Below are positions 33,399 through 54,012 of a DNA stretch of 64,000 nt, in pieces. A program made the position numbers and the translations under genes. Under the pieces are notes generated by a model, which saw only the letters and a program-made list of their open reading frames with translations, searched no databases and was not told the DNA's origin. Numbering within the stretch: the first letter of the stretch is position 1; each line of letters opens with the position of its first letter. This stretch comes from Alphaproteobacteria bacterium (GTDB lineage Bacteria > Pseudomonadota > Alphaproteobacteria > CAAHEQ01 > UBA3637), in assembly GCA_045605805.1 (NCBI GenBank), contig JAZUQR010000026.1, forward strand, positions 6,101-70,100, read 5' to 3'.

Positions 33399-33570
33399 GG
33401 GTGACCAGTCAGATTTCAAAAGTGACCAGCCCCCGATTTTTGAAAATAGTATAAGTATTTGATATTACTGTATTTTTATGCGGCCAGTGACGAGACCGAT
33501 TTTTTCTGTTTCGCTAAAAAAATGGCGCGGCTTGTGTCCCCGAATATGAATTATCACCAGGAAGGATCCG
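33399..33570. repeat. Conserved ~170-bp non-coding element, copy A (GTGACCAG iterons plus conserved core 'ttcgcta.aaa.atggcgcggcttg.gtccccg.atatgaa...ccaggaagga')
   Basis: Aligns at ~75% identity with 51152-51318, same orientation. Confidence 0.6.
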
Positions 33571-35397: not shown

Positions 35398-35508
35398 AAT
35401 AACAGCTGAAAGTTTTAGAATTTACAATATTATTCAAAAATTTTTCTATTTCACTGGACTTCTTCGTTTTTCCAAGCATTCATTGTAATGTAACGAAAGG
35501 AGTTTATT

Positions 35509-35763
35509 ATGAATACAGTTAAAGTTTATTTGGTGCGAAAACCTTTGGATTTTGAAGAAGTAAAAAACTTATGCAAAAAGTATGCGCATAAGGCCGAAGA
35601 GATCTTAATTGAAGAAACTGTCAACCTACCACCAACTTGGTATGAGGAGTTTTGCCAACGCCCATTGGATAACTACATTTTCTTATCCGGTAAAGGCGGT
35701 TATGATGATTTAGGCCACCGCAAAGTAGTTGCTATAAAATGCCTAGGCAAGCCAACGCTCTAG
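35509..35763 (+). CDS. Small protein family A (paralog of 50738-51046); ends at an in-frame TAG
   Basis: RBS aaaggag. 'YIFLSGKGGY' shared with paralog. Confidence 0.55.
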   Translation: MNTVKVYLVRKPLDFEEVKNLCKKYAHKAEEILIEETVNLPPTWYEEFCQRPLDNYIFLSGKGGYDDLGHRKVVAIKCLGKPTL

Positions 35764-35809
35764 GTTGATCCTTCCGGCTCAAGCTATTGCCGATATATGG
35801 GAGTAGAAA

Positions 35810-36046
35810 ATGAAAAATTATAATGACATTCCTCCAAATTACAAAATCAGCATGCCGATGGTTTATAACCACGCAATTAGAGTACTTGATAGGCTGGATA
35901 GACGACTGAGCAGACTTAACACCCCAGCGCTACCGATTAAATACAAATACGAAATCAATCGTCTAGAACATAAACTGGAACAAATGGTCGCTAAATACAA
36001 AGCCATTGAAAAGGAGTTGGAATATGTCCGAACCAAAATATCCTGA
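35810..36046 (+). CDS. Hypothetical small coiled-coil protein
   Basis: RBS gggagtag. Absent from the paralogous cassette. Confidence 0.3.
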   Translation: MKNYNDIPPNYKISMPMVYNHAIRVLDRLDRRLSRLNTPALPIKYKYEINRLEHKLEQMVAKYKAIEKELEYVRTKIS

Positions 36047-36227
36047 GATAACTGTGCACCTGGCAGGTGAAAATGGGAATGCTTTTTATATTTTAGGCAA
36101 ATGTCGTTCGGCGATGAGGCGTGCTAACATCTCCAAAGAAGAACAAGATGAATTTTACCGCCAAGCCACCGCCAGCGACTATAATCACTTATTCATCACC
36201 TGTATGGAATGGTTTAATGTAGAATAG
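36024..36227 (+). CDS. Small protein family B (paralog of 50530-50727)
   Basis: RBS aaggag. 'KYPEITVHLAGENGNAFYILG' conserved with paralog 'KYPDIIVQLTGKDGNAFNILG'. Confidence 0.55.
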   Translation: MSEPKYPEITVHLAGENGNAFYILGKCRSAMRRANISKEEQDEFYRQATASDYNHLFITCMEWFNVE

Positions 36228-36292
36228 GTCTATTTTTCTTGATTTTTTATGAATTAAAGGATATGCTGATTAAAAATCAGGAGGAAATAGCT

Positions 36293-37216
36293 ATGCAACC
36301 CAAATTTTTACATTCTTTTGTGACGCGTTCTCATAAAGGCGTTTATGGCATTATTCGGAAAAATAATCAGATTTTACTCATCCGTAAAGCACGTGGTCCC
36401 TATACAGGGCTTTATGATTTGCCCGGTGGAAGTCCGGAAGCTGATGAAACACCTGAACAAACAGTGGCTCGTGAAATCAAAGAAGAAACAAATTGTGATT
36501 TAATTTCTTGCACCAACCAACGTGAAAAAACAATTTTCTTTTCCAAATTTACCAAAGAAAGTGGAGAAGAAGGCTGTATGCAACACACGGGGATTTTGTT
36601 TGATGTTAAGGTGGCGGGTGAACCCACAACCCAAGGGGATGGATTAGATTCCAATGGAGCTGTTTGGGTAGATATCAATACTTTATCCAGTCAAAATGCA
36701 ACACCTTTTGTTTTAATGGGCTGTGGTAAGGAAGTTATCAATTTAGCCAATGAAGAGGATTACCCTGTGGATGTCGCTGTGCGTGGGGAACCTATCCCCG
36801 AAGGAAGGTGTCCCATGATTGCAGGTCTCTTTTTGTTCAACTCTAAAGGCAATATTATTTTGCAGAAAGTGGCTTTATCAAAGAAAACAGATCCGGGGAA
36901 ATGGAGTTATTCTGCTGCTGGGCATGTGGATGCTGGTGAAACTTATGAACAGGCTGCCTTACGTGAATTAAGCGAAGAAATGGGAATTAAGGCCTCCGGC
37001 ATAACCTTTGTTGGAAAAGGCCATATATTAAAGAACGGCAATCCTCGTGCTTTTCATCATGTATTCAAGGTGATTTCTGATGATAAGATTACTTTTGAAC
37101 CGACCGAGGTAGCCGAAGTTAAAGAATGGACTATTCCGGAATTAAAAGAGCAAATAGGGACTCACCCCGAACAATTCAAAGATATTTTTGCCCAAATTTT
37201 TATGGAGGTCTTTTAA
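36293..37216 (+). CDS. Tandem (double) Nudix hydrolase
   Basis: Two Nudix boxes: 'GGSPEADETPEQTVAREIKEETNCD' and 'GHVDAGETYEQAALRELSEEMGI'. Confidence 0.75.
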   Translation: MQPKFLHSFVTRSHKGVYGIIRKNNQILLIRKARGPYTGLYDLPGGSPEADETPEQTVAREIKEETNCDLISCTNQREKTIFFSKFTKESGEEGCMQHTGILFDVKVAGEPTTQGDGLDSNGAVWVDINTLSSQNATPFVLMGCGKEVINLANEEDYPVDVAVRGEPIPEGRCPMIAGLFLFNSKGNIILQKVALSKKTDPGKWSYSAAGHVDAGETYEQAALRELSEEMGIKASGITFVGKGHILKNGNPRAFHHVFKVISDDKITFEPTEVAEVKEWTIPELKEQIGTHPEQFKDIFAQIFMEVF

Positions 37217-37229
37217 TCAAGGAGGAAAC

Positions 37230-37664
37230 ATGTCAGGACCAGAAAGATTTAAAGTACCCGTTGGGATTTTTATAATGCTACGTCAAGACGATAAAGTTTT
37301 GTTGCAGCTGAGGCAAAATTGCTCGTTCAGTGGATATTGGGGATTCGTTGGTGGCCATTTGGATGGAAATGAACAGATCATCTCTGCCGCTATTCGTGAA
37401 GCAAAAGAGGAAGTCGGGGTGGATATTTTACCGGACGATTTGACCTTAAAGACCATTTGCCACAGTAATAAAGGCGAAGAGTACCTGCAATTTTATTTTG
37501 AATGTCGCAAGTGGTTAGGTGAAATTGAAAATAAGGAGCCCCACAAATGCGAACGCTTGGAATGGCATGAATGGAATAAGCTCCCTGAGCATACTTGTCC
37601 CTATTTGAAGGAAGCAGTAAGCAAAATCAATTCAGGAATTTCTTTTTACGAGGATACTTTTTAA
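37230..37664 (+). CDS. Nudix hydrolase
   Basis: 'GGHLDGNEQIISAAIREAKEEVGVD'. RBS aaggagg. Confidence 0.75.
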   Translation: MSGPERFKVPVGIFIMLRQDDKVLLQLRQNCSFSGYWGFVGGHLDGNEQIISAAIREAKEEVGVDILPDDLTLKTICHSNKGEEYLQFYFECRKWLGEIENKEPHKCERLEWHEWNKLPEHTCPYLKEAVSKINSGISFYEDTF

Positions 37665-38254
37665 TGCTGAATAAACTTATTTACTTAACGACAAATCCTC
37701 ATAAAGTTCAAGAAGCCAATGAATTTCTTATTAAGAAATATGGGTTTAATTTGGAAATCATGAAACCTTCTTTTGAAGTGCTGGAGATTCAAGCAAAAAC
37801 TTGTGGCGAGGTTGCGAAATTTAGCGCTAAGTATGGGGCTGAAAAACTGGGAGTTCCGGTTTTGAAATCCGATTCAGGACTTTATATCGAAGCATTGGGC
37901 GGTTTGCCAGGACCTTATAATGCCTATTTTGACAAGCAAATAGGAACAGAAAAGTTTTTGGATATGATGAAAGATATCCCAAATAGGCATGCTAAATTGG
38001 AACATTGTTTTGCTTATTGTGAGCCAGGACAAGAACCCATCTTGTTTACAGGGGGAAGTACGGGGCGTATTTCTTATGAAGCCAAAGGAGAGAAAGGGCG
38101 TTGGCATGACAAGTTTTATATCCCTGATGGGGAAGAAAAAACACTCAGCGAATTACGCGCCATCAACCATGAATATGAGGCACAATTTTGGGGACATGCC
38201 TTGGATGACTTTGCAAAATGGTACAAAGAAAAATTAGAAAAGGATAAAATTTAG
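37664..38254 (+). CDS. Ham1/Maf-superfamily non-canonical purine NTP pyrophosphatase (ITPase-like)
   Basis: 'LTTNPHKVQEAN' and 'SDSGLYIEALGGLPGPYNAYF' motifs. TAATG overlap with upstream gene. Confidence 0.7.
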   Translation: MLNKLIYLTTNPHKVQEANEFLIKKYGFNLEIMKPSFEVLEIQAKTCGEVAKFSAKYGAEKLGVPVLKSDSGLYIEALGGLPGPYNAYFDKQIGTEKFLDMMKDIPNRHAKLEHCFAYCEPGQEPILFTGGSTGRISYEAKGEKGRWHDKFYIPDGEEKTLSELRAINHEYEAQFWGHALDDFAKWYKEKLEKDKI

Positions 38255-38268
38255 TGAAAGGATAACAA

Positions 38269-38850
38269 ATGCAATTACCAGAACAAATTGAATCAGAACG
38301 GATTATTTTAAAGCACCCTATGAAACCGACCTTTAAATTGGCTGAGGAGCTTTACGCGATTGTGGATAAATCCAGAAATACTTTAAGCGAATGGCTCCCT
38401 TGGGTGGATAAAACGAACTCTGTAGAGGATGAATTTACTGGATATCTGGTGAGTCTGAATCAAAAACATTGGGATGAAGGAAATGGTTTCGGTTATCTTA
38501 TTTATCAAAAGGAAACAAATCAGATTTTAGGCGTTGTGGATTTATGCCATGTTGAGGAAAAACATCAATCCGCCGAAATCGGGTATTGGCTCTCTGATGA
38601 CGCAACAGGTCATGGGTATATGCAAGAGGCTGTGCGTGCGTTGGAAAGCGAGGCCTTTCAAAATGGACTTAACCGGATTATCATCAGAAATGATACTTTG
38701 AATATACGCTCTGCCCATGTGGCTGAACGCTGTGGTTATATTTTGGAAGGTGTCATGCGTCAAGATTGTTGGGATGATTATCATCAGCATTTACGTAATA
38801 CCAATATCTGGAGCAAACTCAAATCCGAATGGGAGAAAGAACAAAAATGA
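38269..38850 (+). CDS. GNAT acetyltransferase (RimJ/RimL-like)
   Basis: 'IGYWLSDDATGHGYMQEAVRAL' motif. Confidence 0.7.
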   Translation: MQLPEQIESERIILKHPMKPTFKLAEELYAIVDKSRNTLSEWLPWVDKTNSVEDEFTGYLVSLNQKHWDEGNGFGYLIYQKETNQILGVVDLCHVEEKHQSAEIGYWLSDDATGHGYMQEAVRALESEAFQNGLNRIIIRNDTLNIRSAHVAERCGYILEGVMRQDCWDDYHQHLRNTNIWSKLKSEWEKEQK

Positions 38851-40058
38851 TTTCACTCAAATCAGCCCCTAGATGGTTATCTATTGCTTATGCCTTAACA
38901 TCGGCATTGTTTTGCCTGCCGACATTAATGCTTTTTTATGGGTTTAAAGGTGTTGGTATGGGGGATTTTTTCTTGATTCAAGGGATATCAAATCTCACTG
39001 TATTTTTTATGGAAGTTCCAACCGGCTATATCGGTGATTTGTTTTCCAGAAAACACACTTTAATTATCGGGGTATTGTTTTGGATCTTGGGGCATGTTAT
39101 TTGGATTTTGGGTTCAGGATTTTTCATTATTTTACTGGGGGAATTGTTATTTGCATTAGCGATTGCTTTCATTTCCGGCACGGCGGAAGCATATTTATAC
39201 GATTTATTGAAAAAACGACATAAAGAAAGTTTATTCCATAAAAAATATGCTAAAATGAAAATGTTGGATGGAATTGCTTTGATGGTGGCTACGCTGACCG
39301 GTGCTTTTATCTATCAATTTTTGGGGCCAACCATTCCGTTATACTTAACAATTTTCTGTTTAATGTTAAGTGTTGTTATTTTATGGCAATTACCGGATGT
39401 TCCCGAATCCAGACGTATTGTTGACAAAGATAAAAGCAAATGGCAGGATATTTTGGATATTTCCAAATATGCCGTTAAACATCCTGAAATAAAATGGCTG
39501 ATGCTTTTACCGGCGGTGTATGGGACATTAACGCTTATTTTGATGTGGGGATTACAATCCGTTATGGTATTTCATCAATTACCTGTATTTGTTTTCAGTT
39601 TGATTTTAGGGATAAACGCATTGATGAGAACTTTTTGGTCGGGCGTTTCCGGTCGGATATTGGAAAAAATAAACCTTTCCGGAACCATAAAATTGCAAAG
39701 TTTAATTATTATCATTGCCTCTTTGGGGGCATGTATATCGGCCTATGTTCCGTTATGGGGTGTTTATATATGTTTGGGCTTGATGATTATCGGATCAGCC
39801 TCCAGTTCTTTATCCAGTATCACAACATCTGTTTTGGTCAATCATAGGATTCAATCCAATGAACGGGCGACAATTTTATCGGTTAAATCAATGCTGGCAA
39901 AGGCTTTTCATGGGGTGGGACTTATCTGCTTGAAACCCTTGTTTGACGGAATAGGTGTCGGACCAACTTTTATGGTATCTGCCCTGCTTTTAATCCCTAT
40001 TCTGATTTGTGCAAGACACCTGTATAAGATGAAGTTAAGGATAATGAAAGGGGACTGA
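38847..40058 (+). CDS. MFS transporter
   Basis: 12 TM helices. ATGA overlap with upstream stop. Confidence 0.7.
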   Translation: MISLKSAPRWLSIAYALTSALFCLPTLMLFYGFKGVGMGDFFLIQGISNLTVFFMEVPTGYIGDLFSRKHTLIIGVLFWILGHVIWILGSGFFIILLGELLFALAIAFISGTAEAYLYDLLKKRHKESLFHKKYAKMKMLDGIALMVATLTGAFIYQFLGPTIPLYLTIFCLMLSVVILWQLPDVPESRRIVDKDKSKWQDILDISKYAVKHPEIKWLMLLPAVYGTLTLILMWGLQSVMVFHQLPVFVFSLILGINALMRTFWSGVSGRILEKINLSGTIKLQSLIIIIASLGACISAYVPLWGVYICLGLMIIGSASSSLSSITTSVLVNHRIQSNERATILSVKSMLAKAFHGVGLICLKPLFDGIGVGPTFMVSALLLIPILICARHLYKMKLRIMKGD

Positions 40059-40059
40059 T

Positions 40060-40953
40060 ATGCTGATACTGAACATCAATGGGCCAATGAATTCTGGGAA
40101 ATCTACGGTTTCTAAGATTTTGGTGAATATGCTCCCTAACGCCACTTTTATTGAAGTGGATGAATTAATGAGTGATGAGGAACAAGAAAAACTGGGGCTA
40201 TCCCTGCAACAAGGGTGGCGGGAACGTCATAAACGATTAAATCAGAAATTAAGGGCTCTTAAAAAATCGCATGAGTATGAAACTGTGATTTTTGCTTATC
40301 CGATTGCTGACAATACTTATCAGGATTGGAAAATGCTGGAGGATAACCACACAAAGTTTTTGAACATTACCCTTGCGCCCAGTTTGGAAGAATGTTTGAA
40401 AAATCGTGGCACACGAGAACTCACCGATTGGGAAAGAAATCGCATTCGTGAAATGTATGAAGAGGGATATCAAAACCGCCCATACGCCGACTTTATCATC
40501 AATAATGACCATCAAACACCCAAAGAAACTGCTGAGATTATTAAAGGATTTATTGAACATGCTCTCTCCCCAAAACAACAATGGTTACATTTGGTGGAAA
40601 AACGTTGGCCCGCCCTTTTGAACGGAGAAAAAACTTCCACTTTCCGTTTCAATGAAGGTTTCATCCATAAGGGCTTCTTGGTTTATAAAGACTGCCCAAA
40701 CGAACAGTTGGCCGAGGTTGTTTATGTGACACATGTGTATTATGTGCCTTTGCGCCAAGCCAATGAAATAGACGGATATGATGAGCATACACCGGATATG
40801 GAAACAGCCTTAAAACAAATGCGTGTTCATTATCCAGATATTACTTTGGATACGCCCATTTTATTTGCTCAGCACTTAGGAGTTCCTGAAACCAAACAGA
40901 AATATCCAGAAGAAGTTAAAGAAATATTGGAGAAAATGAATGTCAAAAACTAA
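40060..40953 (+). CDS. P-loop small-molecule kinase (CPT/zeta/uridine-kinase-like) fused to a C-terminal ASCH-like domain
   Basis: Walker A 'INGPMNSGKSTV'. C-terminal 'LLNGEKTSTFRFNEGFIHKG' ASCH-like. Confidence 0.5.
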   Translation: MLILNINGPMNSGKSTVSKILVNMLPNATFIEVDELMSDEEQEKLGLSLQQGWRERHKRLNQKLRALKKSHEYETVIFAYPIADNTYQDWKMLEDNHTKFLNITLAPSLEECLKNRGTRELTDWERNRIREMYEEGYQNRPYADFIINNDHQTPKETAEIIKGFIEHALSPKQQWLHLVEKRWPALLNGEKTSTFRFNEGFIHKGFLVYKDCPNEQLAEVVYVTHVYYVPLRQANEIDGYDEHTPDMETALKQMRVHYPDITLDTPILFAQHLGVPETKQKYPEEVKEILEKMNVKN

Positions 40954-41347
40954 ATTATCAGTATGTGGTGTCATTGTACATCAGAGCAAATTTCTAATAG
41001 TCAAACGTTCTGAAACAGATGACTTTTTGCCAAATTGTTGGGAATTCCCTGGTGGTGGTGTAGAAGATGGTGAAACAATATCCGAAGCCTTGAAACGAGA
41101 AATAAAAGAAGAAATAGGTTGGGATATATCAAATGAATATCCAAAACTCATCGGTATTTCTGAAGAGTTTATGAATGAAGAAAAAACAGAAAGATATTTA
41201 CAATTAAATTATAAGATTGTTATGGACACAGAACCCAACATGACACTCAGTTCCGAACATGTCGCTTTTGATTGGGCGGACACGACCGATTCCAGATTGG
41301 ACGATTTTCTAAAAGAGATTATTAGGCAACTGAATACAACAATCTAA
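40940..41347 (+). CDS. Nudix hydrolase
   Basis: 'GGGVEDGETISEALKREIKEEIGWD'. Confidence 0.7.
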   Translation: MSKTKLSVCGVIVHQSKFLIVKRSETDDFLPNCWEFPGGGVEDGETISEALKREIKEEIGWDISNEYPKLIGISEEFMNEEKTERYLQLNYKIVMDTEPNMTLSSEHVAFDWADTTDSRLDDFLKEIIRQLNTTI

Positions 41348-41729: not shown

Positions 41730-41983
41730 TTGTTTCGCGCTCCTTTTACCCCAAAGACAGCTTTGAAGTTATACCTGTTCTTGTGAATAAGTTCAACCCC
41801 ATGGGCTTTGGATATAACCAGAACATATTTGCCTATCCACAGACGAAAGTAATAACTTTTAATGGCTAATTTAATATTTTCTTTTGTGCGATATTCAGTA
41901 CCATCAGCCCGCTCCACTTCAACACTTCGGCCGAAGCCAAAGCGATTGTTATCCAAATCAAATCCGTATTCAATGTAAATCAT
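41726..41983 (-). CDS. Hypothetical small protein in RM operon
   Basis: ATGA-coupled to downstream ASCH gene and overlaps upstream phosphatase gene. Confidence 0.4.
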   Translation of the reverse strand: MIYIEYGFDLDNNRFGFGRSVEVERADGTEYRTKENIKLAIKSYYFRLWIGKYVLVISKAHGVELIHKNRYNFKAVFGVKGARNK

Positions 41984-42440
41984 TTTTCTCCAAATAATCT
42001 AAAAACGCTTGGCAACCTTCATAAATATCCCAATAGGTTTCATCAAAGTTGCCAGTGTACCAAGGGTCTTTAACTGGTCGAGGATTTTGGGTGAAGTCCA
42101 ACAGACGATGCACTTTATGGTCTTTATCCTCGCCAACGATATCCAAAATATCCCGCACATTGTTATCGTCCATCGCCAAAATATAGTCAAATTTATCATA
42201 GTCGGACTTGCGAATTTGACGCGAGTAGTGTTGGGTGAAAGGGACTTTCATCTGCCGAAGCATATCCGCCGCTCGGTAATCCAGCGCCTCATGCACCATT
42301 TCGTTATACCCCTCTGTCGCGGCAGAGACAATTTCAAACTTGTCCGCTACACCTTTCTCAGCGACCATTTGCTTCATCACAAATTCCGCCATTGGCGACC
42401 GACAAATATTTCCAAGACATACGAATAGAACTTTAATCAT
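41970..42440 (-). CDS. Low-molecular-weight protein-tyrosine phosphatase / ArsC-like
   Basis: 'VLFVCLGNICRSPMAE' CX5R P-loop and 'DPWY' motif. TAATG overlap with hsdR stop. Confidence 0.8.
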   Translation of the reverse strand: MIKVLFVCLGNICRSPMAEFVMKQMVAEKGVADKFEIVSAATEGYNEMVHEALDYRAADMLRQMKVPFTQHYSRQIRKSDYDKFDYILAMDDNNVRDILDIVGEDKDHKVHRLLDFTQNPRPVKDPWYTGNFDETYWDIYEGCQAFLDYLEKNDLH

Positions 42441-45400
42441 TAAGCAACCCTCACATTGTCTGTCCAAAGTTCACATTGAGTCATAACCGTTTCAACGGCA
42501 TCCTCTACACCTTCTGGGGGATACTTATGCTTTTTCAATAACTTTTTAATAAGCATACGCATCTTTGCACGAGCATTCTCACGCCTTTGCCAGTCAATTG
42601 TTTTATTTTTACGCAGTGTTTCTGTTAGTTCTTTTGTAATGGCAACTAATTCGTCATTTTCATAAAAATCCTTAACTGCTTGAGGCTTTGTTAATGCATC
42701 ATAAAAGGCAACTTCTTCTGGTGTTAATCCTAAATCTGCCCCTTCCTTTTGGGCCTCCGAAATTTGTTTTGCCAGGCTGAGTAACTCTTCTATTACCTGC
42801 TCGTTGGTAAGCATACCATTTAGGTAGCGGTTCATAATTGCCTGAATTATTTCACTAAACTTTTCAGAACGCACAACGTTTGTTTTACGGTAAATAGAAA
42901 TTTGTTCTGCAATTAATTTTTTCAAAAGTTCAAGGGCTAAATTCTTTTGTTTCATTTTTGAAATTTCTTCCAAAAACTTCGGATCAAACAAAGAAAATTC
43001 TTTCTTTACATCAGAAAATAAATTAATAACGCCATCGCTTTTTATACTTTGTTTCAGCAACTCATTAATACGTTCATTCATTTCCTTCAAAGAAATCTTT
43101 TTGCCTTCTCCTGCATTAGTTAAGCGTAAGGTCAAAACACGAACGGCTTCCATAAAAGCGGCTTCTATGCGTTTTTCTTCCTTAACAATAGAAGAACACA
43201 AAGATAAGGATTGATGTAGCATCAAGGCATGCTTCAGGAATTGTTCTTTTTTCTTATCTGTTCCAATAATAAAGTTTACTGCCCCACTAATAAGCTCAGC
43301 ACGCTTTAAATTACTACCCGTCATAAATTGTTGATAATCAAATCCATGCAATAAATCACGACAAACACTTAATTTTTCTTCAAATTCTTTAAGTGCTGTT
43401 TCAGCGATATTCATATTTCCATAGTTCTTTTTATCACGAACTGTGTAATCGTTCATCGCTTGTTTCAGCGCATTTGCAATTCCGACATAATCTACAACAA
43501 GTCCACCTTCTTTATCCTCAAATACACGATTAACGCGAGCTATTGCCTGCATTAAATTATGTCCCATCATTGGTTTATAAACATACATCGTTGCCAAAGA
43601 AGGTACATCAAATCCGGTCAACCACATATCCACCACAATGGCAATTTTTAGAGGATCTTTGTTATCCTTAAATTTACGGGCCAACGCTTCTTTATGAGAT
43701 TTATTTCCAATGATTTGACGCCAATCTTCTGGGTCATCATTACTAGAAGTCATCACAACCCCCACTTTTTCTTTCCAATTGGGACGTAATTTTAAGATTT
43801 CTTCATAAATTTTCAAAGCAATAGGACGTGAATAAGCAACAATCATCGCCTTTCCAGTAAGCAAGTTTTCCCGATAATTTTCATAGTGGTCTATAATATC
43901 GTTTACCAAGGAATGAATAGTGTTATCATTCCCCAGAATTGCTTCCATTTGCCCAAGTTTCTTTTTACTTGCTTCAATGACTTCAGGATCTGCATTTTGG
44001 GCCATTAAATCATATTCATCATCAATTTTCTTGAGTGTTTCTTTATCCAGATTCAACTTAACCACTCGACTTTCATAGTAAACGGGGCGAGTTGCTCCAT
44101 CTTCCACAGCCTGTGTCATATCATAGATATCAATATAATTTCCAAACACTTCTTGCGTATTTCTGTCTTTTTTGGAAATAGGTGTCCCCGTAAACCCGAT
44201 AAATGTTGCATTTGGAAGACTATTGCGGATAACACGAGCAGTCCCTGTTTTAATTTTCCCGTCTTTGGTTATTTTTTCCGCCAAACCATATTGCCCCCGA
44301 TGAGCTTCATCTGCCATCACAATAATATTCCGGCGAGTGGACAATGGCTCTTCGGATTCTTCAAACTTCTGCATCGTTGTAAAGAAAATCCCATTGGCCT
44401 TGATACCATTTAATAACTTTTTCAAATGTTCCCGACTAGTTGCTTGAACGGGTTCTTGTCTTAAAAAGTCTTTACATTTGGCAAATTGTCCATAGAGTTG
44501 ATCGTCCAAATCATTGCGGTCTGTTAGTACCACAATTGTCGGACTGTTTAAAGCACTTTGTAGCAGGTGGGCATAAAACACCATAGATAAAGATTTACCA
44601 GAACCTTGTGTATGCCAAAACACACCACCTTTACCATCTGTTTCTGTTGCTTTTTGAGTTGAAGTAATGGCTTTTTTCACCGCGAAGTATTGGTGATATC
44701 CGGCCAAGATCTTTTTGCTTCCTTTATTTTCATTGGAAAAGCAAATAAAGTTCTTCAAAATATCCAAGAGTCTCTCTTTTGGAAAGATGCCTTTAAAAAA
44801 AGTATCAAACTGTGCGTGTTGGGTATTTTCATATTTTCCATCCACAGTTTTCCATTCCATAAAGCGTGTTTCATCAGAAGTAATCGTTCCCGCCTTGGAT
44901 GTCAATAAATCGCTTGTGACGCAAATAGCGTTATAGATAAACATAGAGGGGATTTCATGTTTATAGTTTTGGATTTGGCGATATGCCTCGGAGGCATCTG
45001 TTTCTTCACGGGAAGGAGATTTCAACTCCATCAAAACCAAAGGCAATCCGTTCACAAATAACAAAATATCCGGACGTTTTTCGCTGTTTTCAATAAAGGT
45101 CCATTGGTTAGCTACAATAAAAGAGTTTTTATCAGGTCTATTATAATCAATCAAATAAACAATGGTATCTTTGGGTTCTCCCTTTTCTGTATAGCGAACC
45201 GTAATACCACTTTGCAAATACTCCATAAACACAGCATTCTTTTGTGTTAGTTCTGCGTTCTCAAAGTTCTTTAATTTTGTTAAGGCCTCTTTAATCGCCA
45301 CTTCGGGAAGTTTAGGATTCAAGCGGCACAAAGCATCAATCAACTCATCTTCGTATAAGGGAGAATGAAAATCCCGACTTTCTAAATCAGGCCCATAGAC

Positions 45401-45487
45401 ATACCGATACCCCATCCCCTCAAACAACTCTATTACAGAGTTTTCATAAGCTTCTTCATTTACAGGATTGATAAAAGTATCGGTCAT
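42440..45487 (-). CDS. hsdR: Type I restriction enzyme R subunit
   Basis: 'TQGSGKSLSM' motif I, 'MADEAHRGQ' DEAH box, 1015 aa, HsdR N-terminal nuclease region. Confidence 0.9.
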   Translation of the reverse strand: MTDTFINPVNEEAYENSVIELFEGMGYRYVYGPDLESRDFHSPLYEDELIDALCRLNPKLPEVAIKEALTKLKNFENAELTQKNAVFMEYLQSGITVRYTEKGEPKDTIVYLIDYNRPDKNSFIVANQWTFIENSEKRPDILLFVNGLPLVLMELKSPSREETDASEAYRQIQNYKHEIPSMFIYNAICVTSDLLTSKAGTITSDETRFMEWKTVDGKYENTQHAQFDTFFKGIFPKERLLDILKNFICFSNENKGSKKILAGYHQYFAVKKAITSTQKATETDGKGGVFWHTQGSGKSLSMVFYAHLLQSALNSPTIVVLTDRNDLDDQLYGQFAKCKDFLRQEPVQATSREHLKKLLNGIKANGIFFTTMQKFEESEEPLSTRRNIIVMADEAHRGQYGLAEKITKDGKIKTGTARVIRNSLPNATFIGFTGTPISKKDRNTQEVFGNYIDIYDMTQAVEDGATRPVYYESRVVKLNLDKETLKKIDDEYDLMAQNADPEVIEASKKKLGQMEAILGNDNTIHSLVNDIIDHYENYRENLLTGKAMIVAYSRPIALKIYEEILKLRPNWKEKVGVVMTSSNDDPEDWRQIIGNKSHKEALARKFKDNKDPLKIAIVVDMWLTGFDVPSLATMYVYKPMMGHNLMQAIARVNRVFEDKEGGLVVDYVGIANALKQAMNDYTVRDKKNYGNMNIAETALKEFEEKLSVCRDLLHGFDYQQFMTGSNLKRAELISGAVNFIIGTDKKKEQFLKHALMLHQSLSLCSSIVKEEKRIEAAFMEAVRVLTLRLTNAGEGKKISLKEMNERINELLKQSIKSDGVINLFSDVKKEFSLFDPKFLEEISKMKQKNLALELLKKLIAEQISIYRKTNVVRSEKFSEIIQAIMNRYLNGMLTNEQVIEELLSLAKQISEAQKEGADLGLTPEEVAFYDALTKPQAVKDFYENDELVAITKELTETLRKNKTIDWQRRENARAKMRMLIKKLLKKHKYPPEGVEDAVETVMTQCELWTDNVRVA

Positions 45488-46338
45488 TTTTTCTCCTTTA
45501 ATCCTTTAAGAAATTCAGCCATTTTGTTTTTCCGTTCTTTATTATCTTTAGCCAAAACGCAGAATAAAAGCAATTGATAAATTTCATCATACCACTTTTC
45601 TAATTCTTCATTGGTCAGATTTGTTACTAGATTATTTTTCTTTTTACCTGCCTTGTTATTATGACGAATATCTAAATTATTAAGCATATTCTTTGCAGTT
45701 TTGAAATAATCAGTGAATCCGTCAATAGGATTATCTAAAATAGGTTCATATTCCTGAGCAATTCGACGTAAAATATCTTTTTTTTCTGCTAATTGTCCCT
45801 TTAATGATGCATGATGGTATTTTAAAATTGCCATTGCTGTATCTGTAGAGGAAATTTCTGCTACAGCTGTTGCAGCAGGATTTTTAGGAATTAAAATAAC
45901 TTTTTCTTCTTCAGTAAATATCTTCTTTTCATGGTGAATATGTTCTAAAAGCAAATCTATATTACTCAAAAGCATAGGATATTCATTATAATACTGAAAA
46001 TTAATATTTTGACGACCAACTCCTCGCTTCTGTATCAATAAATTTATAAGATTAAGATAATACTCTAAAATTGTTACCATTTCATCAGTGGTATCCACAT
46101 GTTCTGAAATGAATATTTTGTGTCTCATTTCATCACAGTTTAAGCAACTTCCTCTTTGCTTCCAATTTACAAAAGCATAACTATCTACCATTTGTTCAAT
46201 AGTTCCCTGTGTTTGTTGAAAATTTAAAGGATTTGTATACACCAACATTGCGGTATTAAATAATTTAACAATTTTTCGAAATTCTTTTTGAAAATCATAC
46301 TTGCTTGCTAAAATTTCAAAGATATTTTTACGAGTCAT
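45484..46338 (-). CDS. Uncharacterised protein embedded between hsdS and hsdR (284 aa)
   Basis: ATGA overlaps on both sides. No motif I can assign. Confidence 0.55.
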   Translation of the reverse strand: MTRKNIFEILASKYDFQKEFRKIVKLFNTAMLVYTNPLNFQQTQGTIEQMVDSYAFVNWKQRGSCLNCDEMRHKIFISEHVDTTDEMVTILEYYLNLINLLIQKRGVGRQNINFQYYNEYPMLLSNIDLLLEHIHHEKKIFTEEEKVILIPKNPAATAVAEISSTDTAMAILKYHHASLKGQLAEKKDILRRIAQEYEPILDNPIDGFTDYFKTAKNMLNNLDIRHNNKAGKKKNNLVTNLTNEELEKWYDEIYQLLLFCVLAKDNKERKNKMAEFLKGLKEKK

Positions 46339-46808
46339 GGGGCATCCTTTTTATTTTCCAGTGGCTTATTAAAACAATCGATATTCTTTTTTAGTTCTAC
46401 TGTTAAATCGTTGGTTACAGCATATATTTTATAATCTTTTATATTGGCAATATCTTTATTAGTATTATCATCTATTTTGGGAATAAAAACAGTATTATAG
46501 GGAGATATCACAAGGGGACTCCCTAACGCGGTCCAAAAACCACTTTGCGTATTATTATCTTCTACATATATACGGTAAATAACTTCCGTTTTATTTTTAT
46601 GATTAACAATGCAAAAGTTTGTTATATTTGCCTTTTGAGTCTTGTGATCATACATTGCTGTCGGCAAAACAATAGATAAATCGTGCCCCGTTCTTTCTTG
46701 TTTATCATCTTTTGCTATCTTTGCCATGGTCTTGGTAAGGAAAAATATGGCAATTGTCAAAATTAACATTGATGTTGATAAAACTATGTTCCAATCTATA
46801 TAAACCAT
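46335..46808 (-). CDS. Uncharacterised membrane-anchored protein embedded in RM operon (~157 aa)
   Basis: N-terminal TM 'VLSTSMLILTIAIFFL'. ATG at 46808 preferred over TTG at 46814. Confidence 0.5.
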   Translation of the reverse strand: MVYIDWNIVLSTSMLILTIAIFFLTKTMAKIAKDDKQERTGHDLSIVLPTAMYDHKTQKANITNFCIVNHKNKTEVIYRIYVEDNNTQSGFWTALGSPLVISPYNTVFIPKIDDNTNKDIANIKDYKIYAVTNDLTVELKKNIDCFNKPLENKKDAP

Positions 46809-46810
46809 AT

Positions 46811-48022
46811 TCAAACCTCCACATTATCGACATTGATTTTGCCGGACATGAGTTTGGGTAATAAAGTGTCTCGAAGTGCAGACAACTGGATATTTTCTCT
46901 TTGGTTTGCTTTAATTTGTGCAAACATTGGAGAAATCACAGAATGGAAATCTTTCAATTCAGATTCTTCTGGCATAACAAAAGGCATTGATTTAATAATT
47001 TTTGAATTAACGGCAGTTGCAATGGATGACGTGCTCCCCATTGTTTGAAAATTAAAGTTTTTCAAATAATAATACAAATATTCGTTTATTTCTTTTTTAT
47101 CTGTTCCAAAATGAGCAATGGCTTCGTTTGTTGCCATTTCTCCATCTGTAATTGCAATTCTTCCAACAGTCAGTTTAAAGCTCAATAGAACAGTATTATC
47201 TGGTACAATTTTAACATTAAATTTGGAAATTGACTCTGGAACTAAATATTCAGAACTATCAGAAATATACAGCCCACAATTTCCCATATCGGATATAGAT
47301 ATCCATTTAATATCATTAGTGTTTTTTGAAAACCATTCAGGCTCTTTTCGGGGAGGAGTTTTCCCGATTGTAATATTAAAAAATTCTTCAGCTTTTATCG
47401 TTTTTCTGTTTGGATTTATTTTATCTATGAACCAAGATTTAAAGAGGGCTTGGGCTTGGAGTTCGAGGTTTTGATTGATTTTGTTGTTCAGCTCTATCTT
47501 ATCATCCAGAGCCCCCAACACCCCCGCAATCTTCCTCTGCACCTCCACTGGCGGTATATTTACAGGGATGGAATACAAATGTCCAACCTTTATGCTAGGT
47601 TGTACAGAACTTATATTCAATGCTTGTATATAACTTTGTATATTGGGTTGAGATAAACAATAATACATGAATGTAGAGTCAATGTCCTCTTTATACTGCA
47701 TGGCAATGATGTTTTGCGCTATACACCCCTTATCTTGCGGCATTAAAGCAACTTTTCCAATGTTTCCAACAGTTGTTATTAAAACATCTTTTGGGTTGGG
47801 ATGTCCACTTCGAAACCAATTCTGATACGTTTCAATATTAACAAATTTTGATGCAGAAGCCAAATCTGGGTATCTATCTCCAGCTTTTAATAAGTTGCTT
47901 TCAAGTAGAGGAATGATACCTTCCGTATCCAAGGGTGCATTCTTTCCCCGGTTATCAATTGTATTTTTAACCAAATCCCCTAATTTAATCTCTCGCCAAC
48001 CTGACATTATATTATTTGCCAT
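46811..48022 (-). CDS. hsdS: Type I restriction-modification specificity subunit
   Basis: Two target-recognition-domain halves with conserved central/C-terminal helices. Start MANNIMSGW with RBS aggga. Confidence 0.8.
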   Translation of the reverse strand: MANNIMSGWREIKLGDLVKNTIDNRGKNAPLDTEGIIPLLESNLLKAGDRYPDLASASKFVNIETYQNWFRSGHPNPKDVLITTVGNIGKVALMPQDKGCIAQNIIAMQYKEDIDSTFMYYCLSQPNIQSYIQALNISSVQPSIKVGHLYSIPVNIPPVEVQRKIAGVLGALDDKIELNNKINQNLELQAQALFKSWFIDKINPNRKTIKAEEFFNITIGKTPPRKEPEWFSKNTNDIKWISISDMGNCGLYISDSSEYLVPESISKFNVKIVPDNTVLLSFKLTVGRIAITDGEMATNEAIAHFGTDKKEINEYLYYYLKNFNFQTMGSTSSIATAVNSKIIKSMPFVMPEESELKDFHSVISPMFAQIKANQRENIQLSALRDTLLPKLMSGKINVDNVEV

Positions 48023-48032
48023 CAAATATTCC

Positions 48033-48917
48033 CTATTTTTTAATAAGTTCATATAGCAAAGGAAAGTTACTTTTTTGGTAAGAATCCAAGTATTGGCTTG
48101 GAATGTCCTTTAATGTTTCATTATTAAATTCATAGATATCAACAATTTCCCTTGAAACAATTTTTTCTTCACCATTTTTCTGTAATTTATTATATCTTAC
48201 CAAGGCTAAAATAGTATCATTTTGATTGCTACGACGCAATGGATGCTTTCCTAATAAAAACTCCTCTCTAAACTTCTGGTCTTTTATTGATGCAATTAAT
48301 GTTGTATTATTTTCTAAATCTTTAAAATTCCAATTTCCCTCTGTTTCCGTATTAATTGGTTTGTATATAACTAGTTTCTGGATTTTATATACGGGATCTA
48401 AATTTCTTATGATATCCCCTTCCACATATTTGAGAAAATCTTTTCTTTTAATTGGAAAGGTATGTTCATTAGAAAAACCAACCCCATTAATATGGTTATT
48501 TAGCCAACACCTTTTATAAAAGTTTGATTTTGCATTAAGTGCAGCATCCAAATTTATCGATGCAGGAATTTCGATATGTTCTTGCAACATGAAGCCAGAA
48601 AACATTTCAGAAATATATTGTCCGGCGTTTTCCCCCAATTCATTTAGGCTCTTCCCTGTTAATCCTTTAATAAAACCAGGCACAAATTCATTAAACAAAA
48701 ATGATCCCAAAAACAAACAAATTGTAAATTTTCCTTTAAAAGAACCTTCTTCTGTTGCATTTAAATATATTTGATAATCCGTGTCCTTAAAACAGGTTTT
48801 TGTAATATTTTTATATATCAATTCAATTTGCTGTGATAAAAAAATAAAATCAGATAATTCCAACGCATGTGTTGGGGTATCTAAATGTAATATAAATTCA
48901 CTCTTTTGTTCAGTCAT
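48033..48917 (-). CDS. Uncharacterised protein embedded between hsdM and hsdS (294 aa)
   Basis: ATGA overlap with hsdM stop. No recognisable motif. Confidence 0.55.
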   Translation of the reverse strand: MTEQKSEFILHLDTPTHALELSDFIFLSQQIELIYKNITKTCFKDTDYQIYLNATEEGSFKGKFTICLFLGSFLFNEFVPGFIKGLTGKSLNELGENAGQYISEMFSGFMLQEHIEIPASINLDAALNAKSNFYKRCWLNNHINGVGFSNEHTFPIKRKDFLKYVEGDIIRNLDPVYKIQKLVIYKPINTETEGNWNFKDLENNTTLIASIKDQKFREEFLLGKHPLRRSNQNDTILALVRYNKLQKNGEEKIVSREIVDIYEFNNETLKDIPSQYLDSYQKSNFPLLYELIKK

Positions 48918-50425
48918 TCAACCTCCCATCCAATTTGTTTCAATTTTGTTTTGATTTCTTCTTGAAGTGTAGAGGATTGTTTGAACATCTCGGAAAGTTC
49001 AGCCGTCAAACGTTTCATTTTGTCTTCAAACGGTTCGCCATCATCGGCTTGTTCCTCTATCCCCACATAACGACCTGGCGTCAAGATGTAATCTTGCTTG
49101 GCAATATCCTCAGTTGTTGCAACAGCACAGAAACCTTTCACATTTTCCAATGTGCCATTTTGGAATGCGGTAAATGTATCGGCCAATTTCTTGATGTCTT
49201 TATCTGTGAAGTCACGGTGTTTTCTGTCCACCATATATCCCATCTTGCGTGCATCAATGAAAACTGTGCGGCCTTTTTGTTGCTTATTCTTGGTAATAAA
49301 CCACAATGTGACCGGAATTGTGACGCTATAGAACAATTGTGTTGGCAGAGCAATAATACCTTCCACTAAGTCAGCCTCAATAATCCGCCGGCGAATATCG
49401 CCTTCACCACTATTGGTAGAGGAAAGGGCTCCGTTCGCCAAGACTAAACCGATTTTACCCCCTGGTGCCAAATGATGTATCATATGCTGAATCCACGCAT
49501 AGTTAGCATTACCTGCCGGAGGTGTTCCAAATTCCCATCGAGGATCGTCTTTTAATTTGTCTTGTCCCCAGTTGGATAGGTTAAATGGAGGATTCGCCAT
49601 AATGAAGTCAAACTTTTCGTGTTGGTGCAGGTCGTTAAAGAATGTATCGGCCTGATACGGTCCCAAATTGGCATCTATCCCACGAATAGCCATATTCATT
49701 TTTGCCATTTTCCAAGTATCTGCGTTGGATTCTTGACCATATACAGAGATTCTGTCACGATTGCCACTGTGGGCTTGCAAGAACTTAACCGATTGCACAA
49801 ACATGCCACCCGAACCACAGCATGGGTCATAAACGCGGCAGTTGTCAAAGGGTTTCAAAACTTCTACAATTGTGCGGACAATGCTGGATGGAGTGTAAAA
49901 TTCACCGCCTTTTGTTCCTTCATACGCGGCAAACTGAGCAATGCAGTATTCATAAGTTCTGCCCAACAGGTCTTTGTCCTTATCCGTTTCGGACATATCT
50001 ATGTTGTTTGTAAACAAATCCACAACATTGCCCAAAACTCGTTTATCCAAATCTTGGTTAGCATAGTTCTTTGGAAGAACGTTTTTCAGGGATTTATTTT
50101 CAGCCTCAATAGCACGCATGGCTTCATCAATCACCATACCGATTTCGGGAGTATGGGCGGCTTCGGCTATTTTGCTCCAACGAGCTGCCTCAGGAACATA
50201 GAAAATGCCTTCCATTATATAAGCATCTTTATCGTTTTCAAAACCATCCCCTTCTGCGACCAATTGGTTATAACGCTTTTCAAATGCAAAAGAAATGTAG
50301 CGCAGGAAAATTAAACCCACAATGACTTTGCGGTAATCCGCCGCAGGAATATGTCCCCACAGTTCGCATGCGGCTTCCCAGATTTGCTTTTCAAAACCTA
50401 TATTTGCGTTGTTTTTCCCTGCCAT
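48914..50425 (-). CDS. hsdM: Type I restriction-modification N6-adenine DNA methyltransferase
   Basis: 'FIMANPPFNLSNW' motif IV, 'VYDPCCGSGGM' motif I, HsdM N-terminal domain. RBS aaagaggt. Confidence 0.9.
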   Translation of the reverse strand: MAGKNNANIGFEKQIWEAACELWGHIPAADYRKVIVGLIFLRYISFAFEKRYNQLVAEGDGFENDKDAYIMEGIFYVPEAARWSKIAEAAHTPEIGMVIDEAMRAIEAENKSLKNVLPKNYANQDLDKRVLGNVVDLFTNNIDMSETDKDKDLLGRTYEYCIAQFAAYEGTKGGEFYTPSSIVRTIVEVLKPFDNCRVYDPCCGSGGMFVQSVKFLQAHSGNRDRISVYGQESNADTWKMAKMNMAIRGIDANLGPYQADTFFNDLHQHEKFDFIMANPPFNLSNWGQDKLKDDPRWEFGTPPAGNANYAWIQHMIHHLAPGGKIGLVLANGALSSTNSGEGDIRRRIIEADLVEGIIALPTQLFYSVTIPVTLWFITKNKQQKGRTVFIDARKMGYMVDRKHRDFTDKDIKKLADTFTAFQNGTLENVKGFCAVATTEDIAKQDYILTPGRYVGIEEQADDGEPFEDKMKRLTAELSEMFKQSSTLQEEIKTKLKQIGWEVE

Positions 50426-50529
50426 TTTGGACCTCTTTTCGTTTAGAATCATAATATCGTAAATTCTAGCCGATTTTTTCTGAAAAGGCAATCAGAAATA
50501 TAAGGTCTGTTGTATTTAATTATGGTGCT

Positions 50530-50727
50530 TTACTCTACCTCAAACCATTTCATGCAGGTGGCAAGCAAGTGGTCGTAATTGCCGGAGGTGGCTTCTGCCT
50601 GAAAGGCATCTTGTTCTTTTTGATTCAAACCGGCTTGACGCATGGCTCTTAAACAGATACCTAGGATATTAAAGGCATTCCCGTCTTTACCGGTCAACTG
50701 GACAATAATATCAGGATATTTTGGCAT
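50530..50727 (-). CDS. Small protein family B' (paralog of 36024-36227)
   Basis: RBS aaggag. Conserved 'DHLLATCMKWFEVE' versus 'NHLFITCMEWFNVE'. Confidence 0.55.
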   Translation of the reverse strand: MPKYPDIIVQLTGKDGNAFNILGICLRAMRQAGLNQKEQDAFQAEATSGNYDHLLATCMKWFEVE

Positions 50728-50737
50728 GACGATCTCC

Positions 50738-51046
50738 TTATTTAACCTCAAGCCCCAAGTAGCGGCAGTAGCTTGATCCTGACGGGTCGGCGTAAAGTGT
50801 CGGCTGACCGTCACATTCCAGGGCGATAACCTGACGTTGGTTGTCGTCGTTATATCCGCCTTTGCCGGATAAAAAGATGTAGTTATCCAGAGGGCGTTGG
50901 CAGACAGCCTGATACCAAGCAGGCGATAAATGAACTGTTTCGGCTATCACCACTTCTTTGGCTTGGTGTGCATATTTTTGGGTTAAATCCCGAACTTCGG
51001 AAATATCGGAGGGCTTGCGGACCATGTAAGTTTTAACTGTTTTCAT
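50738..51046 (-). CDS. Small protein family A' (paralog of 35509-35763)
   Basis: RBS aaaggag. 'VCQRPLDNYIFLSGKGGYND'. Confidence 0.55.
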   Translation of the reverse strand: MKTVKTYMVRKPSDISEVRDLTQKYAHQAKEVVIAETVHLSPAWYQAVCQRPLDNYIFLSGKGGYNDDNQRQVIALECDGQPTLYADPSGSSYCRYLGLEVK

Positions 51047-51151
51047 GATAATCTCCTTTCGCATCACAATGAACGCTCTTTTTCGAAGAATTATCCAGTT
51101 ATTTCTGTACTAAATCGCAAGAAATATGCATTATTTTGAGGGGGTGACCAG

Positions 51152-51318
51152 CCAGAAGTGACCAGTGACCAGCCAGGAAAAATTGGGTCCCCTTATAACC
51201 CTTGTGTTTATTGGGGTTTGAGATATACCCGACCAGCCAGAATTTTTCGGTTTCGCTAGAAATATGGCGCGGCTTGCGTCCCCGCATATGAAATCTCGCC
51301 AGGAAGGACCTCTGGCCA
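51152..51318. repeat. Conserved ~170-bp non-coding element, copy B (three GTGACCAG iterons plus conserved core)
   Basis: Aligns with 33399-33570. Lies in the 5' leader of the RM operon and 3' of the nitroreductase gene. Confidence 0.6.
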
Positions 51319-51363
51319 GATACCTGATCACCCGAGTGGCTAGTAATCCAAGCAACCAAGAAA

Positions 51364-51958: not shown

Positions 51959-52723
51959 TTAGCCTTCTTCATTGGTTTTGGCATATTCTTCCCCGTACAT
52001 TTCCCATTGGTCAACCGAACGCTTCCAATCTTTAATTGGGTTGCCATACTTATCACGCCACTTTTGGCGGGAATAATAAGCGTGGAATTGGTAAGGGTTG
52101 ATTCTATGATAGTTCATTGTTTGACAATACTCTTCCACTTGTTCTATGGACGGGCTGTTATCACTTGATCCCAACAGTTGTCCGATTGGAACCGGACCTT
52201 TAGAAATTGAGCCTTGCCTTGGCACACTCCAATTCATTGCCAAGCCTGAGGGAGTTTCTTTTTCATTATATACATTCTGGGCATTCTTTCCTTTCTTATT
52301 TATAGCCGCAGGTAGTTCGCCGGTCGTCCGCAGGTAGTTCGCGCCTGAGTCGCATTGGGACAATTCATCACCGCCTAACACATTGAAATCATTATATTTT
52401 AACATCTTTATAAGTAGTCCGTTTGCTAAGCGTTTTGTATCAACTTCCCCGGTTTTTTTGAGTTTTGCTATAACCCGCTTGATTTATTGCGGGGATTTTT
52501 TTAAGGCCTCTGAAATCACTGCATAACTGGTCAGCAATTCGCCTTTATGGATAACATATTCATAAAGTTCTTTATCTTGGAAATTTGCGCGCAGTAAGAG
52601 ATAAAGATATACTTGGCACACATTCTCATCCGGAAGCCAGCGCCAGTTTAAATAACGTCTGTCTAATTTGACAAAGCCAAGAGGAAAATGCGGATCATCC
52701 GTTTTTTGTTTGTTTTGAGACAT
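51959..52723 (-). pseudogene. Phage/ICE-type replisome-organiser (DnaD-like) gene split by frameshift in an A7 run (~52486)
   Basis: N-fragment 'FVKLDRRYLNWRWLPDENVCQVYLYLLLRAN', C-fragment '...KYGNPIKDWKRSVDQWEMY'. The alternative frame joins them. Confidence 0.5.
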
Positions 52724-53714: not shown

Positions 53715-53900
53715 AGTTATCGCTTTTTATGGATTACCTAGCAAAGAAAGTTTTGGTTGGTTCATCTGCTTAAATAGCACTTTTGCTTTCTTTTCCCAAA
53801 AAACACAGATGAATTGTGGTAAATGGGCATTTTCACATTGAGCCTAAAATGCATCACAAGAGCTTTTGTAACGGGCTTATCATTCCCCTGTTTCAAATAT

Positions 53901-53942
53901 GAAAAAAGCCCGTTTCAAACGGGCTGAATCTTAAATTGGTGG
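53901..53942. repeat. 42-bp direct repeat copy 2 (tRNA-Ala last 6 nt plus downstream terminator); right island boundary
   Basis: Identical to 34592-34633. Hairpin agcccgttt/aaacgggct followed by T-run on minus strand acts as tRNA-Ala terminator. Confidence 0.7.
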
Positions 53943-54012
53943 AGATAAGGGGAATCGAACCCCTGACCTACGCATTGCGAACGCGTCGCTCTACCAACTG
54001 AGCTATATCCCC
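53937..54012 (-). tRNA. tRNA-Ala (anticodon CGC) with G3:U70 identity pair, CCA-encoded
   Basis: Reverse complement folds into cloverleaf: acceptor GGGGATA/TATCTCC, anticodon loop TTCGCAA, T-loop TTCGATT. Confidence 0.9.

Follow-up and report, generated by a model that had tools for sequence, protein, structure and literature searches.

Phage satellites and prophages with hotspots for defence cargo, such as P4-like and PICI-like elements (PICI, phage-inducible chromosomal island), provide one comparison for a cassette of small genes that occurs twice in a 64,000-nucleotide (nt) stretch of DNA from Alphaproteobacteria bacterium (GenBank assembly GCA_045605805.1, contig JAZUQR010000026.1, positions 6,101 to 70,100), the whole of which is referred to here as the window. 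In each cassette a gene of family A precedes a gene of family B, and both cassettes lie in one genomic island. As in P4-like and PICI-like elements, this island is built of an integrase end, a putative replication gene (c8) beside an array of iteron-like repeats, conserved backbone genes and, behind them, variable defence cargo; its regulatory sequences are common to a resident prophage family. In contrast to them, it employs a serine recombinase accompanied by DUF2924, no capsid-redirecting genes were identified, and the copy in the window is decayed.

The A protein can be compared with solo domains of polyvalent proteins, reported to lie close to structural genes of phages (Iyer et al. 2017, PMC5512222). 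Likewise, A occurs inside proteins with ArdC-N/PolyVal, LPD29, LPD7 or DUF2213 domains as well as in a stand-alone form of ~100 amino acids (aa) beside phage structural genes and in arrays of small open reading frames (ORFs), sometimes fused to B or to a further family, c9. Unlike those domains, A has no Pfam model of its own and here heads defence-cargo operons in a chromosomal island. A second comparison is offered by the ClpC adaptor MdfA (YjbA, UPF0736; PDB 8b3s; PMC11960690), the only protein whose N-domain the structure model of A resembles. However, sequence homology is not detectable, the helical part is much smaller in B, and MdfA belongs to another phylum and another biology, being encoded by a chromosomal Bacillus sporulation gene restricted to Bacillaceae. 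The controller (C) proteins of restriction-modification (R-M) systems are also encoded by small genes heading R-M operons, but they are Xre-type helix-turn-helix (HTH) DNA binders acting on a C-box, whereas A and B show no HTH. Moreover, the cassette also precedes non-R-M cargo or nothing, and its association with R-M genes is inconstant. The anti-restriction proteins ArdA, ArdB/KlcA, Ocr and lambda Ral share with the cassette proteins that they are small, acidic to neutral and borne by phages or mobile elements near methylase or R-M genes. From the anti-restriction families only ArdC-N was encountered, as fusion partner of an A domain, and no Pfam match to ArdA, ArdB/KlcA, ArdC, Ocr or Ral was obtained for A, B or the intervening family c1.

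Both cassettes are located where a first-pass annotation of the window had placed them, and their genes are indeed paralogous. BLASTP detected 63% identity over 84 aa between the two A proteins (E 6e-44) and 56% over 64 aa between the two B proteins (E 5e-30). At the DNA level only the B genes can be recognized as inverted repeats (71-75% complementary) while the A genes are not detectable, in agreement with the initial view that the copies had diverged in nucleotide sequence yet remained homologous as proteins. The description as adjacent pairs applies to copy 2, in which the true start of B, the ATG at position 50727, lies 10 nt past the stop codon of A; in copy 1, by contrast, a third gene, c1, is inserted, whose ATG overlaps the original end of A and whose end overlaps the start of B. 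This gene is conserved beside A in 45 related loci. As proposed, each cassette stands at the head of a co-directional operon: the first Nudix ORF starts at 36239, following the end of B at 36227, and the hsdM ORF starts at 50491, following the end of B at 50530. In neither of these short gaps was a terminator predicted by a consensus scan.

One correction concerns the size of A, for which 84 to 102 aa had been given. In the copy-1 gene, codon 85 is TAG, whereas the closest loci (L046 and L063) carry TAT encoding a tyrosine that is nearly invariant in the family; the alignment of these three sequences has a mean column identity of 94%. Past the TAG the frame still encodes the conserved C-terminus. 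Members of family A usually comprise 101-104 aa and end in the near-invariant motif PTLYVDPSGSSYCRYMG (alignment of 32 members), so that the nonsense codon removes the most conserved motif of the family. The 84-aa sequence is recorded solely on the source contig (75,315 nt), and its 90% cluster holds 545 members, mostly of 104 aa. The short form is a TAT to TAG nonsense mutation private to this gene and not natural length variation. Stop-codon recoding was rejected: the two in-frame stops found in the island differ (TAG at a Tyr codon in A, TAA at a Gln codon in c8), and TAG terminates 8 of the 55 long ORFs of the window.

That A and B belong together is indicated by their arrangement elsewhere. 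In all 36 paired cases among the A-anchored loci, both genes share one strand and A lies 5' of B, separated from it by 0-3 small genes. When viral contigs were retrieved with B as query (n=44), A was found upstream in 15, and four further contigs of this set encode a single A-B polypeptide of 171-207 aa (L119, L121, L122 and L127); a fifth fusion (P0276) is among the representatives from the profile search. Three proteins in addition fuse A to c9 (P0260, P0283, P0302). The initial suspicion that the pairing exceeds chance is thus borne out, and the fixed order together with the natural fusions indicates that A and B are functionally coupled. Most likely they act together as a protein-binding pair, and they would then form a complex. 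The coupling is not obligatory, as B accompanies only 24 of 65 A genes, and 24 of 43 viral contigs carrying B have no A.

Family B is the more widespread partner. Both B proteins of the window match the PHROG 1933 profile (E 2.9e-22 for copy 1 and 5.8e-26 for copy 2; profile positions 6-71 of 71), and 713 homologues were collected. By tblastn, B was detected at ~45-52% identity in 231 phage records, invariably annotated as hypothetical protein, from phages of Mycobacterium, Listeria, Arthrobacter, Microbacterium and Campylobacter; A was never found in these records. Genes next to solo B are heterogeneous and include dUTPase, RNA ligase 2, M15 peptidase and occasionally a methylase. A general link between B and DNA methylases was considered and dropped: it is seen in the prophage type of locus described below, in a Calothrix plasmid and in one viral contig but is absent from most of the sampled phage contexts. 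A literature search for phrog_1933 and DUF6329 yielded no papers.

To describe the settings of A, ORFs were called in all fetched loci and clustered, and frequent clusters were named by Pfam. For family A, 236 close homologues were retrieved from the protein collection and the full profile search returned 303 representative clusters, whereas the phage genome collection gave no match. Species-representative genomes contained 96 A loci, 80 of which, from 63 assemblies, were kept; almost all of these assemblies are labelled gut or rumen Alphaproteobacteria metagenome-assembled genomes, and 14 carry two or three copies of A. Architectures were counted for those distinct A genes that have 3 kb or more of downstream sequence (n=65). 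The most frequent type (27/65) consists of A and c1, behind which lie convergent genes, the last of them encoding a low-molecular-weight phosphatase; defence genes (type I R-M, helicases, reverse transcriptases, AAA_15) are found beyond these. In 23 of the 27 no co-directional gene follows and the next genes converge on the cassette. The operon-head position seen in the window does not extend to the family as a whole. Another 14 A genes are prophage-borne and lie in the order DUF6291, DUF6362, S-adenosylmethionine (SAM) synthetase (MetK), ParB-N6/N4 methylase, A, DUF6891, c9, c18, B, small and large terminase subunits, portal. In the prophage loci L070-L094 and L103-L118 the SAM synthetase gene was seen immediately 5' of the ParB-methylase gene. 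This prophage layout was also found in IMG/VR contigs and a Ralstonia phage-plasmid (pm01), and solo A likewise adjoins terminase and portal genes in the 14 prophage-type genomic loci, in further IMG/VR contigs and in pm01. Eight A genes are found at the recombinase side of islands, in the order DUF2924, serine recombinase, c8, A, (c18), B, (HTH_17), type I R-M, and the remaining 16 are arranged otherwise. That the A-c1 type and the recombinase-side type are the two ends of one island can be seen from the window and from its closest relative (L018 and L030, one contig).

What follows the complete cassette was assessed for 27 distinct A..B cassettes with sufficient downstream sequence. Type I R-M genes lie co-directionally behind 11 of them (~40%), the Nudix operon behind two and other genes behind one, while a terminase gene occurs within five genes in another 11. 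As two of the three cassettes classed as other (L094 and L097) are also prophage loci, the prophage total amounts to 11-13. The expectation that cassettes recur ahead of R-M operons therefore holds for part of them, a similar number being situated upstream of terminase in prophages instead. The R-M systems behind the cassette represent at least two HsdR families, which argues that the cassette is element backbone and R-M the cargo.

A second line of evidence concerns the nature of the A protein, in which three motifs, RKP, GKGG and DPxGxxYxRYxG, are conserved across the wider family. Scans of A, B and c1 against Pfam, NCBIfam and PADLOC gave no match (for PADLOC-DB 2.0, A, B, c1 and c18 at E <= 0.01), and neither A nor B matched an HTH family in Pfam or NCBIfam. 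Searches of PDB sequences, by sequence and by profile, found nothing significant, the weak matches being to eIF3A, heptose kinase and the MuB N-terminal domain (E 0.19), the best hit to an HTH-like domain. In multidomain proteins A is joined to named domains. P0383 combines ArdC-N, a metallopeptidase (MPTase-PolyVal) and A; five proteins combine LPD29 and A (P0287, P0300, P0339, P0374 and the plasmid-encoded Clostridium botulinum WP_024931840); LPD7 accompanies A in P0364 and DUF2213 in P0249. A Foldseek comparison of A with viral models also returned an LPD29 protein. As ArdC-N, the PolyVal peptidase and the LPDs are the hallmarks by which polyvalent proteins of phages and conjugative elements are recognized, A appears to be a polyvalent-protein-type domain, found both within multidomain proteins bearing these hallmark domains and in solo versions beside phage structural genes. 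LPD30 has been reported as linked to LPD29 (PMC5512222), and A might correspond to LPD30; Pfam scans of the LPD29-A fusions reported no second LPD. The only Pfam family approached is DUF6329 (PF19854, 39 positions). It is matched weakly by 8 of 54 distant A relatives (best E 2.4e-4; one fusion reaches 25.7 bits against a cut-off of 26.8), whereas the A protein of the window gave no match and the gathering score was not reached.

Structure models of both proteins are confident, with predicted local distance difference test (pLDDT) scores of 91.6 for A and 91.7 for B. The model of A shares its fold with the N-domain of MdfA/YjbA (UPF0736), although A has no Pfam match to this family and 8b3s was not recovered from PDB sequences at E <= 10 by phmmer or by profile. 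B is modelled as a strand, three helices and a strand; no HTH fold was found, and the model matches generic helical bundles only.

Further evidence that the cassette belongs to the element backbone is provided by the DNA in front of it. The motif ACTGGAY-N16-(G/C)RTTCATTG was present 20-60 nt before the A start in 14 of 15 loci, in all architectures. The 40 nt preceding A, including this motif, are 95-100% identical between islands and prophages, and the A proteins encoded there are ~60% identical. The motif core GGAY-N16-CRTT resembles promoters of the extracytoplasmic function (ECF) type, for which GGAAC-N16-17-CGTT is an alphaproteobacterial consensus. A sigma-54 reading was dropped upon inspection as the spacing is wrong. 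In addition, a 167-nt element with CTGGTCAC repeats and a GC-rich hairpin precedes A in islands and the ParB-methylase gene in prophages; it was also located in L030, L038, L068, L073, L084, L090 and L094 and in prophage loci. Two ORFs (86 and 74 aa) at 51099-51359 were rejected as genes, being translations of this conserved non-coding repeat element. An RNA structure was rejected as well because the covariation term is close to zero; conserved in sequence but not covarying, the element has the look of an array for protein binding and probably is not an RNA, and it could represent iterons or an operator.

We propose that the cassettes are diverged copies of a backbone block of temperate phages and phage-derived islands in gut and rumen Alphaproteobacteria. 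In its prophage form, the block consists of A, 0-3 small variable genes and B, placed between the ParB-DNA-methylase gene, with SAM synthetase before it, and the small terminase gene. The island form comprises serine recombinase, c8, CTGGTCAC repeats, A and B, with defence cargo behind B, so that R-M genes would occupy the place held by the packaging module in the prophage. On this account the cassettes head operons because cargo, type I R-M or, in copy 1, the Nudix operon, has been inserted behind B. A and B would be made when the element becomes active, and their complex would work for the element itself, in establishment or in counter-defence, a role that we favour tentatively and rate at somewhat below even chances. 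It is suggested by the polyvalent-protein company of the A domain together with the methylase and SAM-synthetase context. Of the roles initially envisaged for the cassette (controller-like, toxin-antitoxin or anti-restriction), the last, taken as anti-restriction or establishment, is the one that remains plausible, on the basis of domain fusions and gene context.

The competing explanations differ in how well they accommodate these data, and a late phage function has to be taken seriously. A and B could act in DNA packaging or in methylation prior to packaging, for instance as partners of the ParB-methylase or of terminase, and the island copies would then be inherited baggage or a means to exploit a helper phage. 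While we consider this less probable than a role in establishment, the neighbourhood of ParB-methylase, A(-B), a DUF3489-like gene (recognized by eye) and small terminase is kept despite differences in gene order and across large distances, with fusion-bearing contigs and Ralstonia among the examples; islands and prophages have the CTGGTCAC element and the 40 nt in front of A in common; and in the Calothrix plasmid there is an overlap between B and the end of a DNA methylase gene. The A domain, however, also resides in conjugative-type proteins (ArdC-N, LPD7), which do not package capsids, B in other phages is not generally near terminase or methylase, and islands retain intact cassettes but no packaging genes. 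Regulation of the operon behind, such as timing restriction relative to methylation after transfer as R-M controllers do, would explain the operon-head position in the window and in the 11 R-M-associated cassettes, the conserved motif upstream of A and the tight or overlapping gene gaps. It is nevertheless unlikely: A and B match no HTH or other DNA-binding family, the cargo varies from R-M systems with different HsdR proteins to the Nudix operon and the terminase module or, at most A-c1 loci, does not follow the cassette co-directionally at all, and B is present in lytic phages lacking R-M.

A two-part adaptor in the manner of MdfA would dock on the N-domain of a host AAA+ unfoldase and redirect proteolysis, for example towards HsdR during establishment. 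Degradation of HsdR by ClpXP is needed when Escherichia coli acquires type I R-M genes. The succession of an alpha/beta N-domain and a helical-bundle C-domain in MdfA (PMC11960690) parallels the succession of A and B and their natural fusions. Judged from the models, A would then be the sole protein known to be related to the MdfA N-domain fold, with B as its helical partner, and the pair, a mobile-element version of such an adaptor, would bind to a host unfoldase or to a defence protein and send it to degradation. We regard this as improbable, given that A and MdfA are unrelated at the sequence level, that B has three helices in 65 aa compared with ~108 aa for the MdfA C-domain, that 8b3s was not among the best 60 matches listed for the B model, and that half of the cassettes have no adjoining R-M system. 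Nor is ClpC known to be typical of Alphaproteobacteria. The least probable option, hardly to be expected on the present data, is a toxin-antitoxin or addiction pair that stabilizes the island. Two small, adjacent and co-transcribed genes on a mobile element would suit such a pair, and copy 1 kept B while losing A, as an orphan antitoxin might. Yet Pfam, NCBIfam and PADLOC gave no match to a toxin or antitoxin family, A and B often occur singly (B beside 24/65 A genes only, solo B in 24/43 viral contigs and in the 231 phage records), up to three genes separate them, and they are also fused in one polypeptide. We infer that the cassette is neither a transcriptional controller of its cargo nor a toxin-antitoxin pair.

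Several observations weigh against the establishment or counter-defence role that we prefer. Solo B occurs in many unrelated phages with heterogeneous neighbours, so that its role may be general rather than directed at defence. A late or packaging function would account equally well for the location beside terminase in prophages. The assignment of A to the polyvalent repertoire derives from domain fusions and not from a named Pfam family, every database name found for homologues of A and B is hypothetical protein, and the nonsense allele in copy 1 indicates that A is dispensable at that site. Overall, the cassette is a conserved, non-random module, best filed as a solo polyvalent-protein-type domain of phages and derived islands.

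The island harbouring the cassettes spans ~19.3 kb between two 71-nt direct repeats (83% identical) at a tRNA-Ala gene, and the cassettes are positioned at its ends, pointing inward (Table 1). In many related loci tRNA-Ala(CGC) adjoins the recombinase end as well, and an Rfam scan of the whole window yielded two tRNAs and nothing else. The recombinase gene beside the tRNA is reduced to its C-terminal two thirds, which is 96% identical to intact relatives. Compared with relatives (L021), ~2.6 kb have been deleted, comprising the catalytic N-terminus of the recombinase, DUF2924 and HTH_17. Truncation of the recombinase and the in-frame TAA in c8 show that the island is decaying and looks immobilized, and the loss of A in copy 1 is part of this decay.

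Table 1. Coordinates of the cassettes, their upstream elements and the surrounding island in the window.
Feature	Position	Strand	Remarks
Distal island boundary, 71-nt direct repeat	34568..34638		Copies sequence adjoining and including the 3' tip of tRNA-Ala
Second, diverged 167-nt CTGGTCAC element	33399..33566	-	Direct repeat, 82-85% identical
Promoter-like motif upstream of A copy 1	35453..35489	+	ACTGGAC-N16-CATTCATTG
Family A copy 1	35509..35763	+	84-aa truncated allele; in-frame TAG (35761-35763) at nearly invariant Tyr85 position
Leftover C-terminus of A copy 1 past nonsense codon	35764..35823	+	Reads VDPSGSSYCRYMGVENEKL and then a stop, in frame
Family c1	35810..36046	+	78-aa predicted coiled-coil protein between A and B
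Family B copy 1	36024..36227	+	67 aa; PHROG 1933
Cargo operon behind cassette 1	36239..41347	+	Three Nudix proteins, Ham1, GNAT, MFS transporter, kinase-ASCH fusion
Cargo operon behind cassette 2	41970..50491	-	Type I R-M (hsdM, hsdS, hsdR), three extra genes, terminal low-molecular-weight phosphatase
Family B copy 2	50530..50727	-	65 aa; PHROG 1933; GGAG ribosome-binding site between A2 stop and B2 start
Family A copy 2	50738..51046	-	102 aa, intact
Motif upstream of A copy 2	51064..51099	-	ACTGGAT-N16-CGTTCATTG; same motif as in copy 1
167-nt non-coding element	51144..51310	-	Four CTGGTCAC repeats; upstream of cassette 2
Island backbone gene c8	51959..52723	-	In-frame TAA, CAA to TAA at codon 80; possibly replication-related, as judged by inspection only
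Large serine recombinase remnant	52766..53708	-	Residues ~202-568 only; frameshifted
Proximal island boundary	53877..54012	-	Partner 71-nt repeat 53877-53947 and tRNA-Ala(CGC) 53937-54012

Some features of the cargo were noted in passing. Many genes of the island (33634-33966, 34927-35397 and 36239-41729) have products whose substrates may be nucleotides of modified or non-canonical form: three Nudix proteins, one of which matches the PADLOC candidate PDC-S07 (E 1e-19), three proteins with an ASCH domain, Ham1 and a methyl-directed restriction enzyme resembling DpnI. The extra genes within the R-M operon, at 45484-46338 (284 aa), 46335-46814 (159 aa) and 48033-48917 (294 aa), have no Pfam match and only weak PADLOC matches (NucC, E 4.5e-4; PDC-S42, E 3.3e-4). 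The low-molecular-weight phosphotyrosine phosphatase gene at 41970-42467 (cluster c2, ~30 loci) is conserved at the end of the operons for defence cargo in these islands and closes them whatever the cargo, be it R-M, helicases or reverse transcriptases.

In these poorly studied gut Alphaproteobacteria the cassette signals where backbone gives way to cargo in a family of defence-carrying islands and prophages, which makes it a practical anchor for finding new defence cargo. The module pairs two widespread families, a polyvalent-protein domain and a PHROG encoded by hundreds of phages that infect Actinobacteria, Listeria and Campylobacter, and gene order and fusions supply concrete evidence that the two work together. 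By its modelled fold, A is the first candidate relative of the MdfA N-domain. If the adaptor reading were true, the pair would be a portable device for restriction alleviation or establishment, explaining its place before type I R-M genes and beside phage methylases. If a role in counter-defence or establishment holds true, a compact module would be added to that repertoire.

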